From: Escherichia coli
Lineage (GTDB): Bacteria > Pseudomonadota > Gammaproteobacteria > Enterobacterales > Enterobacteriaceae
Reading direction: 5' to 3' (one strand)
Assembly: GCF_003334815.1 (NCBI RefSeq)
Contig: NZ_QOWO01000005.1
DNA: 64,000 nt
Shown here: piece after piece, positions 28,805 through 34,521 of the stretch
Numbering within the stretch: position 1 is the stretch's first letter
Layout: every line of letters begins with the position of its first letter
Notes under the pieces: model-generated
What the model saw: only the letters and a program-made list of their open reading frames with translations
Told to the model about the DNA's origin: nothing
Databases searched by the model: none
Made by a program: the position numbers and the translations under genes

Positions 28805-30256
28805 TTAAATGACGTACAGGTCGAGATACTCATTGACCGGCATCTGTTCCAGGCGAGCTCTGTCGAGAGAAACCTCCAGAATGCGCTGCTGTTGGCGAGT
28901 CGGGAACTGGCGCGCGAGATTGATTTTGAATTTATCGACCAGTTTCGGAATACCATCCTGACGGCGGCGAGCATGACCAATGGGGTACTCCACCACCACT
29001 TCTTCAAATCGTGTGCCGTCGGTGAACTCAAGGGTAATGGCATTGGCGATGGCGCGTTTTTCCGGGTCGTGGTAGTCAGCGGTAAATGCCGGATCTTCAA
29101 AGCAATTGATCTTCTCGCGCAGGGCGTCAATGCGTTTATCTTGCGCAACGTTGTCCTCGTAATCTGCCGCCGTTAAGCGCCCGAATAGCAGCGGGATCGC
29201 CACCATGTACTGAATGCAGTGATCGCGGTCTGCCGGGTTATTGAGCGGCCCTTTTTTGTCGATGATGCGAATACAGGCTTCGTGGGTGCGAATGGTCACT
29301 TTTTCGATATCCGCCGCCGTTTTGCCTGCTGCCTGCATCTGTTCATAGAGCGTCATCGCTGCTTCAACTGCCGTCTGGGAGTGGAACTCCGCCGGGAAGG
29401 AGATTTTGAACAGCACATTTTCCATAACGTAGGAACCGTACGGGCGCTGGAAGCGGAACGATTCACCTTTAAAGGAGACGTCGTAGAAGCCCCACACCGG
29501 CGCAGTCAGGGCTGACGGGTAACCCATTTCGCCCGTTTTCGCCATCAGTGCCAGACGTACCGCGCGGGAAGTGGCATCGCCCGCCGCCCAGGATTTACGC
29601 GTGCCGGTGTTCGGCGCATGGCGATAGGTGCGCAGCGACTGACCGTCCACCCACGCCAGCGAAACGGCGTTGAGAATTTCCTCGCGGGTCAGGCCGAGCA
29701 TTTCGGCGACCACGGCGGTGGAAGCCACTTTCACTAACAGAACGTGGTCGAGGCCGACGCGGTTAAAGGAGTTTTCCAGCGCGATGCAGCCCTGAATTTC
29801 ATGGGCTTTGATCATTGCGGTCAGCACCTGTTTCATGGTCAACGGCGCTTTGCCGCTGGCGACCGCGTTGCGCGAAAGCCAGTCCGCCGTTGCCAGAATG
29901 CCGCCGAGGTTGTCGGAAGGATGGCCCCACTCCGCCGCCAGCCAGGTATCGTTGAAATCGAGCCAGCGGATCATCGCGCCGATGTTAAATGCCGCCTGGA
30001 CGGGGTCGAGCTGGAACTGAGTTCCGGGGACGCGCACGCCGTTGGGTACGACGGTGCCGGGAACAATTGGCCCCAGCAGTTTTTTACAGGCCGGGTATTC
30101 GAGAGCTTCCAGACCGCAGCCGAGCGTGTCGAGCAGGCAGTAATGTGCGGTGTCGTAGGCCACTTTAGAGCTGATTTCGTAGTTCATGACGTAATCGACG
30201 ATATCAACGATTTCACGATCAAATTCCGGGCGGATGTTGTTGATTTGAGCTGACAT
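28805..30256 (-). CDS. prpD: 2-methylcitrate dehydratase
   Basis: 483-aa [51 protein letters not shown]... (MmgE/PrpD family). Confidence 0.95.
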
Positions 30257-30289: not shown

Positions 30290-31459
30290 TTACTGGCGCT
30301 TATCCAGCGCGACAAACGGGCGGTCTTCCGGTCCAACATAATTGGCGGAAGGACGGATAATTTTGTTGTCCTGACGTTGTTCGATAATGTGCGCCGCCCA
30401 GCCGGTGACGCGGGCGATAACAAACAGTGGTGTGAACATCTCGGTGGGAACGCCCATCATGTTGTAGGAAACAGCAGAGAACCAGTCGAGATTGGGGAAC
30501 ATCTTTTTGCTCTCCCACATCACCGTTTCCAGGCGATCGGCGATGTTGTACATCTTCAGCGAGCCGCCTTCCTGCGAGAGCTGCTTCGCCACACGTTTAA
30601 TCACCTGGTGGCGCGGGTCAGCGATGGTGTAAACCGGATGACCAAAACCAATGACCACTTCTTTGTTTTCCACGCGCTTGCGGATATCTGCTTCGGCTTC
30701 GTCCGGCGTTTCGTAGCGTTGCTGGATCTCCAGCGACACTTCATTCGCCCCGCCGTGTTTTGGCCCGCGCAGTGCGCCAATCGCGCCAATAATCGCGGAA
30801 TACATATCAGAGCCGGTGCCCGCAATCACCCGACTGGTAAAGGTGGAGGCGTTAAACTCGTGTTCGGCGTACAGCACCAGCGAGATATGCATCGCCTTTT
30901 CCCAGCTTTGCGATGGCTTTTCGCCGTGCATCAGATGCAGGAAGTGACCGCCGATGGAGTCGTCATCGGTTTCCGGTTGGATGCGTTCGCCGTTGTGGCT
31001 GTAGTGATACCAATAAAGGAGAATCGAGCTAAGCGACGCCAGCAGTTTGTCGGCAATATCCCGCGCGCCAGAGACGGTATGCCCCTCTTTTTCTGGCAGC
31101 GTGCAGCCGAGCGCGGAAACACCGGTGCGCATAACATCCATCGGGTGCGACGCCGCCGGTAAGGCTTCCAGCACGGTACGCACGTTAGCCGGTAAACCGC
31201 GCAGGGCTTTCAGTTTCGTTTTGTAAGCGGCGAGTTCGTCACGGGTCGGCAGTTTGCCGTGGATCAGCAGATGCGCCACTTCTTCAAATTCGCAATGTTT
31301 CGCCAGATCAAGAATATCGTAGCCGCGGTAATGCAGGTCATTGCCACTTTTACCCACGGTGCAGAGCGCCGTATTGCCCGCCGGAACGCCAGAAAGTGCC
31401 ACAGATTTTTTCGGTTTAATGACATGGGTACTGTTTTGCAGGATCGTTGTGTCGCTCAT
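30290..31459 (-). CDS. prpC: 2-methylcitrate synthase
   Basis: 389-aa ORF, citrate-synthase family (..GFGHPVYT.. motif region). Confidence 0.95.
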
Positions 31460-31491
31460 GTTGTCCTCGTCATTGTTATCATTTGTAGGGT

Positions 31492-31790
31492 CGAGATTGT
31501 TGTCGGATGCGACGCTATGCGTCTTATCCGACCTACAGTTCAGTTCACCCCGTAGGCCTGATAAGTCGCGTCAGCGGCGCATCAGGCATCGGTTGTCGGA
31601 TGCGACGCTATGCGTCTTATCCGACCTACAGTTCAGTGCACCCCGTAGGCCTGATAAGTCACGTCAGCGGCGCATCAGGCATCGGTTGTCGGATGCGACG
31701 CCATCCGTCTTATCCGACCTACAGTTCAGTGCACCTCGTAGGCCTGATAAGTCGCGTCAGCGACGCATCAGGCATCGGCTGTCGAATACA
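31492..31790. repeat. Tandem BIME array: three ~93-bp units each carrying two REPs, filling the prpB-prpC intergenic region
   Basis: Unit tgtcggatgcgacgctatgcgtcttatccgacctacagttcagtgcaccccgtaggcctgataagtcgcgtcagcggcgcatcaggcatcggt repeated at about 31501, 31594 and 31687 with a few substitutions. Confidence 0.85.
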
Positions 31791-31805
31791 ATCAACGGGC
31801 GTTTT

Positions 31806-32696
31806 TTATTTCACCTGGCTACGGGCAAACAGGTTGTCGAGCTTCTCTTCGTACTGGTAGTAGTTGATGCTTTCGTACAGCTCGTTGCGGGTCTGCATGG
31901 TGTCGATGACGCTTTTCTGCGTGCCTTCCTGGCGCAGGACGTTGTAGACATGTTCAGCGGCGCGGTTCATGGCGCGGAACGCTGAAAGTGGGTACAGCGC
32001 CATTGCGACATGGGCGCTGCGTAATTCGTCGGTGGTAAACAGCGGCGTGGCACCAAATTCGGTGATGTTGGCGAGGATCGGCACCTGCACCGCATCGGCA
32101 AACTGGCGGTACATGGCGAGTTCGGTAATCGCCTCCGGGAACAACATCTCGGCACCCGCTTCAACATAGGCCTGCGCACGCTCGATCGCCGCATCCAGCC
32201 CCTCTACCGCCAGAGCATCGGTGCGCGCCATGATCACAAAATCAGGATCGGTTTTCGCATCCACCGCCGCGCGGATCCGATCCACCATCTCTTCTTTCGA
32301 GACGATCGCTTTATTCGGACGATGACCGCAGCGTTTCGCACCAACCTGATCTTCAATATGCAATCCTGCCGCACCGGCTTTAATCATCGATTTCACGGTG
32401 CGCGCCACGTTAAAGGCCGAAGAACCAAAACCGATATCCGCATCCACCAGCAGCGGCAGCGAACAAACGTCGGTGATACGGCGAATGTCGGTCAGCACAT
32501 CATCAAGGGTAGAAATACCGAGATCGGGCAGCCCCAGCGAACCTGCCGCCACGCCACCGCCAGAAAGATAAATTGCCTGATATCCGGCACGCTGCGCCAA
32601 CAGCGCATGATTAGCGTTGATGGTGCCAACAATCTGCAATGGATTTTCTTTAGTCAGTGCAGCGCGAAACGCTTTACCTGGAGAGTGTAGAGACAT
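31806..32696 (-). CDS. prpB: 2-methylisocitrate lyase
   Basis: 296-aa [54 protein letters not shown]... (PEP-mutase/ICL family). Confidence 0.95.
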
Positions 32697-32743
32697 AGCC
32701 CATCCTTTGTTATCAACTTGTTATTTGCGTTGATAAAGACAAA

Positions 32744-32759
32744 GCAAGGGGTGTGCCAC
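32744..32759 (-). promoter_or_regulatory. Sigma-54 (-24/-12) promoter of prpBCDE
   Basis: Minus strand reads TGGCACaccccTTGC (GG-N10-GC spacing) 48-63 bp upstream of the prpB ATG; prpBCDE is known to be sigma-54/PrpR dependent. Confidence 0.7.
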
Positions 32760-32831
32760 AATTGCCTTAATAAAATTAAATGTTTAATTTCAATTTGTTA
32801 GAGATAAAGTCATGAACTAATCCGCAAATAT

Positions 32832-32891
32832 GCGTTTCAGTTAACGTTTCAGGCAATGTTTCACCGCGTTTCATTGCAACAATTATGAAAC
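32832..32891. promoter_or_regulatory. Candidate PrpR enhancer (UAS): four direct GTTTCA repeats plus an inverted copy
   Basis: gcGTTTCAgttaacGTTTCAggcaatGTTTCAccgcGTTTCAttgcaacaattaTGAAACa between prpR and the sigma-54 promoter. Confidence 0.45.
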
Positions 32892-32934
32892 AAGACTAAA
32901 CCCAATATTCGGTTTCTTAACTTTGCGGTGCGCT

Positions 32935-34521
32935 ATGGCACATCCACCACGGCTTAATGACGACAAACCGGTTATCTGGACGGTATCTGTAACGCGCCTG
33001 TTCGAGCTGTTTCGCGATATCAGCCTCGAGTTTGATCACCTGGCGAACATTACCCCTATTCAGCTTGGCTTTGAAAAAGCAGTGACCTACATCCGCAAGA
33101 AACTGGCAAACGAACGCTGTGACGCCATCATCGCGGCTGGCTCTAACGGCGCGTACCTGAAAAGCCGCCTGTCAGTGCCAGTTATTTTGATTAAACCGAG
33201 CGGCTACGATGTGTTACAGGCACTGGCAAAAGCCGGAAAACTCACCTCTTCTATCGGCGTTGTCACCTATCAGGAAACCATTCCAGCGCTGGTGGCGTTT
33301 CAAAAAACCTTTAATTTGCGCCTCGACCAACGTAGCTACATTACCGAGGAAGACGCACGCGGGCAGATTAACGAGCTAAAAGCTAACGGCACCGAAGCGG
33401 TGGTCGGCGCAGGGCTGATTACCGATTTGGCAGAAGAAGCCGGAATGACCGGAATTTTTATCTATTCCGCCGCCACCGTGCGCCAGGCGTTCAGCGATGC
33501 GCTGGATATGACGCGCATGTCGTTACGCCATAACACTCACGATGCCACCCGCAACGCCCTGCGTACTCGTTACGTGCTGGGCGATATGCTCGGTCAATCA
33601 CCACAGATGGAACAAGTACGGCAGACTATTTTGCTGTATGCCCGCTCCAGTGCGGCGGTGTTGATTGAGGGGGAAACGGGGACGGGCAAAGAGCTGGCGG
33701 CCCAGGCGATTCATCGGGAATATTTTGCCCGCCACGATGCGCGACAGGGCAAAAAGTCGCATCCGTTTGTTGCCGTCAACTGCGGGGCGATTGCCGAATC
33801 GCTGCTGGAAGCAGAACTGTTTGGCTATGAGGAAGGGGCGTTTACCGGCTCGCGACGCGGAGGTCGCGCCGGGCTGTTCGAAATTGCCCACGGCGGTACG
33901 CTGTTTCTGGATGAGATTGGCGAAATGCCGCTACCTTTGCAGACCCGGCTGCTGCGGGTGCTGGAAGAAAAAGAGGTCACCCGCGTCGGCGGGCATCAGC
34001 CTGTTCCGGTAGATGTACGGGTCATTAGCGCCACTCACTGCAATCTGGAAGAAGATATGCAGCAAGGACGTTTTCGCCGTGATCTGTTTTATCGGCTGAG
34101 TATTTTGCGTCTGCAATTGCCACCACTGCGCGAGCGGGTGGCGGATATTCTTCCGCTGGCGGAAAGCTTTTTGAAAGTGTCTCTGGCGGCGCTCTCCGCC
34201 CCATTTTCTGCTGCATTACGCCAGGGGTTACAGGCAAGTGAAACTGTGCTGCTGCACTACGACTGGCCAGGCAATATTCGTGAACTGCGCAATATGATGG
34301 AACGACTGGCGCTGTTTTTAAGTGTGGAACCGACGCCGGATTTAACGCCGCAGTTTATGCAACTGCTACTGCCGGAACTGGCGCGCGAGTCGGCGAAAAC
34401 TCCCGCTCCACGCTTACTGACACCACAACAGGCACTGGAGAAATTTAATGGCGATAAAACAGCAGCGGCGAATTATTTAGGCATCAGCCGGACGACGTTC
34501 TGGCGGCGGCTGAAAAGCTGA
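32935..34521 (+). CDS. prpR: Sigma-54-dependent activator of propionate catabolism
   Basis: 528-aa product [15 protein letters not shown]... with AAA+ sigma-54 interaction domain ([14 protein letters not shown]) and C-terminal HTH; start trimmed from 32923. Confidence 0.93.

Follow-up and report, generated by a model that had tools for sequence, protein, structure and literature searches.

A three-unit tandem BIME-2 array between prpB and prpC of Escherichia coli: anatomy, copy number among strains and possible bearing on operon expression

The gap between prpB and prpC in the analyzed window (the whole stretch of 64,000 nucleotides from Escherichia coli contig NZ_QOWO01000005.1, assembly GCF_003334815.1) contains a typical BIME-2 array, comprising three tandem units of one y-type and one z2-type REP each, and every feature examined fits this class. 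Descriptions of BIME-2 arrays go back to the early 1990s. A difference in repeat number between prpB and prpC, for MG1655 and the Crohn's disease isolate ZvL2, was published in 2020 (PMC7360682), and PMC3045373 names a 'prpB // prpC repeat' as a reason why a 454 contig of strain NCM3722 broke; the array and its variation were therefore already known. The practical value of the locus lies in annotation (the array yields false open reading frames, e.g. a 179-aa 'hypothetical protein' called by PGAP at five units) and in assembly (the array breaks or collapses short-read assemblies). Furthermore, the locus represents a natural allelic series of 0, 1, 3, 4 and 5 units within one inducible operon, which is usable for following how attenuation and message stabilization scale with the number of REP units.

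Genomic setting

According to the list of open reading frames, the operon gene upstream of the array is prpB (2-methylisocitrate lyase; 31806-32696, minus strand) and the operon gene downstream is prpC (2-methylcitrate synthase; 30290-31459, minus strand), with a gap of 346 bp between them (31460-31805); prpD is located at 28805-30256 (minus strand) and prpR at 32923-34521 (plus strand). The Shine-Dalgarno sequence of prpC (GAGGA) is found at 31464-31468. In transcript order, the first REP starts 32 nt past the prpB stop codon, and 42 nt separate the end of the last REP from the prpC ATG.

Upstream of prpB, an exact sigma-54 consensus (TGGCAC-N5-TTGC) is present at 32743-32758 on the minus strand; it would be the promoter that transcribes through the array. 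No sigma-70-like promoter, including an internal one for prpC, and no intrinsic terminator after prpB were found when positions 31300-33000 were scanned. With an exact sigma-54 consensus before prpB and neither of these other signals, the prpBCDE message is therefore expected to contain the gap as an internal segment.

Upstream of the prpC start, the motif ACCCTACA (mRNA strand; window 31485-31492) is followed by an A/T-rich stretch and GACGAGG. Conservation of the motif extends from Escherichia as far as Shimwellia and Pseudocitrobacter, REP-free species included; the motif may derive from a former REP tail or belong to the prpC translation initiation region.

Over 49 kb, the window and K-12 GM4792 share about 99.9% identity. 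Two stretches (1-612 and 15228-15428) are without counterpart in GM4792, which has an IS2 adjoining the stretch 1-612 and a lacI-lacZ fusion at 15228-15428; these unmatched stretches, together with about 0.1% SNP divergence, therefore identify the window as a close relative of K-12, and not as K-12.

Anatomy of the array

Tandem Repeats Finder placed the array at 31499-31784, with a period of 93 bp, 3.1 copies, 95% matches and no indels (score 523); the extra 0.1 copy is due to the degenerate start of a further unit at 31774-31789 (ATCGGCTGTCGAATAC compared with ATCGGTTGTCGGATGC), as read from the sequence. A repeat search gave three copies spaced 93 bp apart, with an identity of 93-100%. Each 93-bp unit consists of two REP hairpins in inverse orientation, one of the y type and one of the z2 type, and the REP tail motifs alternate between the strands: GTAGGTCGGATAAG on the minus strand at 31523-36, 31616-29 and 31709-22, and GTAGGCCTGATAAG on the plus strand at 31552-65, 31645-58 and 31738-51. 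Within the whole window, the REP tail motif GTAGGYCKGATAAG was matched 23 times, compared to 0.03 matches expected from shuffles, an excess well outside chance; six of the 23 are located within the array, on alternating strands.

An earlier note on this DNA had described three near-identical units of about 93 bp with opposed REP pairs, and Tandem Repeats Finder, the repeat search and the alternating tail motifs all bear out this description. The span given there, 31492-31790, is essentially right and a few bases wider than the array, and its statement that almost the whole 346-bp gap is occupied can be put at 286 bp, or 83%.

The three y-type REPs are located on the minus strand at 31502-31536 (nearest to prpC; GTAG on the minus strand, RNA hairpin of -17.8 kcal/mol), 31595-31629 and 31688-31722, and the three z2-type REPs on the plus strand at 31552-31587 (GTAG on the plus strand, mRNA-strand hairpin of -16.3 kcal/mol), 31645-31680 and 31738-31773, the last of which is the first REP reached by the prpBCDE transcript; tail motif and folding were used to place the second and third y-type REPs and the second z2-type REP. 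The six REPs, of 35-36 nt and each with an internal mismatch, have mRNA-strand folding energies of -14 to -21 kcal/mol, and the prpB-prpC gap as a whole folds as RNA at -149.7 kcal/mol (z = -7.2 relative to shuffles). Tail-to-tail linkers measure 15 nt and head-to-head linkers 7 nt, and both are near-identical across the units.

Assignment to REP and BIME-2

REPs are imperfect palindromes of 30-40 nt with GTAG 5' of the stem foot, and all six elements conform to this with their 35-36 nt and GTAG(G); they are also extragenic, with the array wholly inside the gap, and highly repeated, as reflected by the 23 tail-motif matches in the window. In BIME-2 elements, z2 and y REPs face in opposite directions and are joined by short linkers; the units are in tandem, well conserved within a locus and of strain-variable copy number (PMC3333891). 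In the prp array, CGGAT-type (y) REPs on the minus strand alternate with CTGAT-type long-stem (z2) REPs on the plus strand, a typing that is based on the consensus of the Rfam RF02564 model and on the REP consensus sequences, and that is also backed by a full-length match to this Y-linker-Z2 model. The linkers are short (15 and 7 nt), the units are in tandem (3.1 copies), and the copy number is strain-variable (0, 1, 3, 4 and 5 units among E. coli genomes).

RF02564 (naRNA4), a model of two hairpins (y and z2), matches every unit on both strands. The best match is located at 31555-31626 on the minus strand (63.1 bits; gathering score, 59.5 bits) and is the one match in the array to exceed the gathering score, the other units reaching 57.7 and 35.1 bits. 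Over the 64-kb window, five matches at four loci were above threshold, including two other tandem BIME-2 arrays; the model therefore acts as a general detector of BIME-2 (y plus z2) elements.

The IHF site of such elements lies in the long L linker of BIME-1, and the linkers of BIME-2 are short and variable (PMC3333891). With linkers of 7 and 15 nt, tandem units and no IHF consensus, the array does not conform to BIME-1 or RIP. No match to the IHF consensus WATCAANNNNTTR was found in 31460-31805. The binding of IHF, which the earlier note had put forward for these elements, was thus rejected for the prp array on the grounds of the missing consensus site and of the BIME-2 architecture, the IHF site being a trait of the BIME-1 L linker. 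In the window, matches to the IHF consensus occur at chance frequency (4 found, 2.7 expected). The one nearest to the operon, and the sole one nearby, is TATCAACTTGTTA at 32711-32723, between the sigma-54 promoter and the prpB start; it is located downstream of this promoter, and is probably not the activating IHF site.

A CRISPR array was rejected as well: successive REPs are inverted and not direct, and the units differ by no more than one or two substitutions in the sequences between the REPs. The linkers being alike in all units, unique spacers are therefore absent; spacer-like unique sequences between the repeats were looked for and none were found, and the earlier statement that the array is not a CRISPR holds.

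Copy number among E. coli genomes

The number of 93-bp units was compared among strains, a check that the earlier note had named, in 60 evenly spaced records (BL21(DE3) among them) of the 5,222 that matched a flank-only query; alleles with 0, 1, 3, 4 and 5 units were found. In representative loci, gaps of 44 bp contain no unit (ST95-32 and others), gaps of 155 or 159 bp one unit (O157:H7, EC2641), gaps of 345 or 346 bp three units (the window, K-12 GM4792, GF3-3), gaps of 439 bp four units (MG1655, strain C, Y5, and also BL21(DE3)), and gaps of 532 bp five units (DETEC-S586, FDAARGOS_1289). Among the 60 sampled genomes, no unit was present in 24, one unit in 15, three in 3, four in 15 and five in 2, and a prpB-prpC fusion deletion was found in 1; a two-unit allele was not seen among these 60. 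Hence about 40% of the sampled E. coli genomes have no unit, and the operon is intact there. The counts of a separate sample of 40 records agree with those of the 60.

The window corresponds to MG1655 minus exactly one 93-bp unit, with the remaining positions of the array identical; as judged from the alignment, either unit 2 of MG1655 would be missing or an equivalent crossover would have occurred.

The 44-bp REP-free allele lacks the 9 bp GTTATCATT (plus strand; window 31475-31483) between the prpC Shine-Dalgarno sequence and the ACCCTACA motif; these 9 bp are retained in Kluyvera and Citrobacter. The sequence of the 44-bp allele just past the prpB stop also differs from that of the filled allele. 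Given this 9-bp loss and the altered post-stop sequence, the 44-bp allele therefore represents neither a clean excision nor a clean pre-insertion site. In E. coli ST131 strain 2017_APHA, a deletion (locus 1541-2949) takes the whole intergenic region and joins a prpB without its 3' part to a prpC without its 5' part; both genes are annotated as pseudogenes, and this strain probably lacks an active methylcitrate cycle.

Other repeat loci in the window

Two further tandem BIME-2 arrays, both with RF02564 matches above threshold, are present in the window, and were placed by alignment to K-12 GM4792: one in the yaiL-fghA gap (4343-4551; period 100 bp, 2.1 copies) and one in the mhpE-mhpT gap (6508-6749; period 101 bp, 2.4 copies). 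The mhpE-mhpT array seems longer in GM4792 (repeat matches over about 444 bp, versus 242 bp in the window) and may be another copy-number difference. A REP pair at 41279-41323 (window 41261-41344) is located in the yahG-yahI gap, where GM4792 is about 100 bp longer and carries a 67-aa 'hypothetical protein' called by PGAP (WP_077746356.1), probably another REP-derived spurious open reading frame.

The prpB-prpC gap in other species

The 93-bp unit of the prp array is also present in E. albertii (405-bp gap, seven REPs), and one unit is found in the prpB-prpC gap of a cryptic-clade Escherichia. Citrobacter, Salmonella arizonae/diarizonae and Kluyvera sichuanensis have one or two REPs of their own in the gap; REPs just past prpB were present in every fetched genome of Citrobacter and Salmonella and in one of the two of Kluyvera, and the 3' end of prpB is therefore a recurrent REP site across these genera. 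No recognizable REP was found in the gap of Kluyvera ascorbata, and the gap of Pseudocitrobacter and Shimwellia is short and REP-free.

In 10 loci (several Citrobacter species, Salmonella enterica arizonae and diarizonae, and Kluyvera sichuanensis), GTAG overlaps the prpB stop codon (g-TAG-GCCKGATAAG; locus positions about 2379-2400), and in the remaining REP-bearing loci (other Citrobacter species) GTAG is located 4-6 nt past the prpB stop. A REP close to a stop codon is reported to stall terminating ribosomes, the limit reportedly being roughly 15 nt (Liang, Rudd and Deutscher in 2015). Such stalling could apply in Citrobacter and Salmonella, and prpB may be regulated differently in the genera with a stop-adjacent REP. 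It is unlikely at the prp array of E. coli, where the first REP starts 32 nt past the prpB stop.

Proposed role in the expression of prpB and prpCDE

The reading that we favor, with some reserve, is that the array raises prpB relative to prpCDE through REP-capped transcripts that contain prpB only, with a strength set by the number of units. Once transcribed, the six stable hairpins would form serial roadblocks to 3'-to-5' exonucleases and would also act as leaky, partly Rho-dependent termination points; transcripts that end in the array would keep prpB and be without prpCDE, so that prpB would be expressed above the downstream genes, with less read-through into prpCDE. A nuclease that tolerates structure, e.g. 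RNase R, would be required to clear the hairpin-capped fragments. How strong the effect is would depend on the number of units, 0 to 5 among strains, and expansion or contraction in whole 93-bp steps could proceed by slippage, unequal recombination or a REP-associated transposase.

The role is proposed by analogy, the best-characterized case being REP325, a Y-Z2 array of six units within yjdMN, for which Harris et al. (2026 preprint; bioRxiv 10.64898/2026.03.23.713779) reported an attenuation of the downstream gene of about 8-10 fold, stabilization of the upstream message, a ladder of truncated transcripts, a partial dependence on Rho, and no measurable compaction of the nucleoid. Genome-wide, the ratio of upstream to downstream expression is raised in tandem gene pairs that contain REPs; the same authors describe REP effects as context-dependent, and mRNA half-lives are not uniformly lengthened (bioRxiv 10.64898/2026.03.23.713779). 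For the operon itself, prpB is induced more strongly than the downstream genes (PMC7360682). A proposal of Simonte et al. 2017 that RNase R may target the prpB-prpC repeats is cited in PMC7360682, and an action of RNase R on prpBCDE is likewise cited in PMC5371410, both as second-hand accounts. Term-seq data favor the view that exonuclease trimming leaves stable 3' ends set by stem-loops, REPs among them, and Dar and Sorek attribute the trimming downstream of stem-loops mainly to PNPase and RNase II, and not to RNase R (PMC6061677). A setting of prpB versus prpCDE expression by the array, as the earlier note had suggested, would agree with both PMC7360682 and bioRxiv 10.64898/2026.03.23.713779. 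About 40% of the sampled E. coli genomes are REP-free with an intact operon, and any function of the array is therefore dispensable.

A less probable but still tenable explanation is a neutral or selfish repeat, i.e. REP proliferation by a REP-associated tyrosine transposase and replication slippage at a tolerant site, with no selected effect on prp. The presence and the unit number of the array vary freely, from no unit in 24 of the 60 sampled genomes up to five units in 2, and the other BIME-2 arrays of the window also differ in length from K-12, both of which speak for this explanation. However, REPs of different types are found at the prpB 3' end in the fetched genomes of Escherichia, Citrobacter and Salmonella and in Kluyvera sichuanensis, which suggests a hot spot or selection, and REP325 has clear expression effects in a like context. 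Moreover, a neutral origin is compatible with a regulatory consequence.

Rather unlikely as the main role is one at the DNA level, in which the array would be a strong site of DNA gyrase binding and cleavage, possibly with cruciforms, that manages supercoiling in the surroundings of the prp operon. An excess of gyrase cleavage sites in BIME-2, greater for y than for z2 REPs and independent of transcription, has been reported (PMC6379681), and the prp array has three y REPs; however, in vivo cleavage sites are found in only a subset of BIME-2 elements, and prpB/prpC were not found in the supplements searched of PMC6379681. Gyrase binding, which the earlier note had named along with IHF, is thus a general property of BIME-2 (PMC6379681), and for the prp array it is putative. 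A role at the DNA level would be compatible with the favored role at the RNA level, which in turn is compatible with a gyrase site as well as with a selfish or neutral origin.

Very improbable is a release of the units as naRNA-type non-coding RNAs of roughly 77 nt, which would bind to HU and compact the nucleoid, in the manner proposed for naRNA4. RF02564 matches the units on both strands, once above the gathering score, and naRNA4 was described as a Y-linker-Z2 RNA from REP325, on which unit the model is built (PMC4550694); however, the model picks up y plus z2 pairs in general, and the head-to-head linker is 7 nt in the prp array versus 13 nt in the model. Deletion or overexpression of REP325 leaves the nucleoid volume unchanged, and HU, naRNA4 and DNA form no stable ternary complex (bioRxiv 10.64898/2026.03.23.713779), in a study that has an author (Adhya) in common with the original study on naRNA4.

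An extension of the favored RNA-level role, which we regard as doubtful, is that the unit number (0 to 5) adjusts the PrpB : PrpCDE ratio in heritable steps, like a dial, and that the polymorphism is selected in different gut niches; if so, the flux through the 2-methylcitrate cycle and its toxicity would be affected. The recurrent REPs after prpB in Citrobacter, Salmonella and Kluyvera are consistent with selection for such a dial.

Antisense open reading frames across the array

Two long plus-strand open reading frames, both with a 31-residue repeated peptide, read through the array: one of 214 aa (31341-31985), antisense to prpC and prpB and spanning the whole array, and one of 117 aa in a second frame (31507-31860; list of open reading frames). 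Each unit adds 31 codons, because 93 = 31 x 3 and two plus-strand frames of the unit are free of stops. Accordingly, the stop-to-stop length is 217, 248 and 279 codons in one frame and 123, 154 and 185 codons in the other at 3, 4 and 5 units, respectively. The frames are altered or broken in the 345-bp and 155-bp alleles, in which the gap length is shifted by a non-multiple of three, and are gone in the 44-bp (0-unit) allele.

No Pfam or NCBIfam family was found for the two open reading frames, and the lone family match of the repeat frames is a meaningless SepSecS fragment (NCBIfam, E = 0.0015, 17 bits versus a cut-off of 225; Pfam, E = 2.7). An exact look-up of four translations of the repeat frames, including WP_001526095.1, in a collection of 15 billion proteins gave none.

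That these frames encode real repeat proteins can be dismissed with near certainty: their length (214 and 117 aa) and the call of the five-unit version of the second frame by PGAP as a 'hypothetical protein' in two genomes (179 aa, WP_001526095.1, in strain FDAARGOS_1289) would speak for it, but the length of the frames tracks the unit number, the frames are broken in the 345- and 155-bp alleles and missing at 0 units, they are antisense to prpC and prpB with no sigma-70-like promoter nearby, and they have neither a family match nor an exact counterpart among the 15 billion proteins. The earlier note had called both frames artifacts of the repeats; they exist as listed there, and, as judged from the sequence comparison, 'spurious' is the right reading of both.

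Comparison with known systems

The closest class is BIME-2 as defined by Gilson, Bachellier and Hofnung, with which the prp array shares alternating y and z2 REPs, short linkers, tandem head-to-tail units, a highly conserved sequence within the locus and a strain-variable copy number. Nothing essential differs; the y REPs of the prp array have a compensated stem variant (GGTCGG...CCGACC, not GGCCGG...CCGGCC), and the head-to-head linker is just 7 nt. BIME-1, RIP and RIB elements, which bind IHF, are also built of inverse REPs, but are present as a single copy of z1 and y with a long conserved L linker that contains the IHF site, none of which is found in the prp array.

The intercistronic REPs of malE-malF and hisJ-hisQ, which Newbury, Higgins and co-workers reportedly found in 1987 to protect the upstream message from 3'-to-5' decay (cited in PMC6061677), are likewise hairpins that skew expression within an operon; these comprise one or two REPs, whereas the prp array is a three-unit tandem BIME-2. 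The nearest relative in architecture is REP325 (naRNA1-6; yjdM-yjdN), also a multi-unit Y-Z2 array between co-transcribed genes that is matched by the same Rfam model; REP325 comprises six units with an 'l' linker of 13 nt, and its effects on expression were measured, whereas those of the prp array are inferred only.
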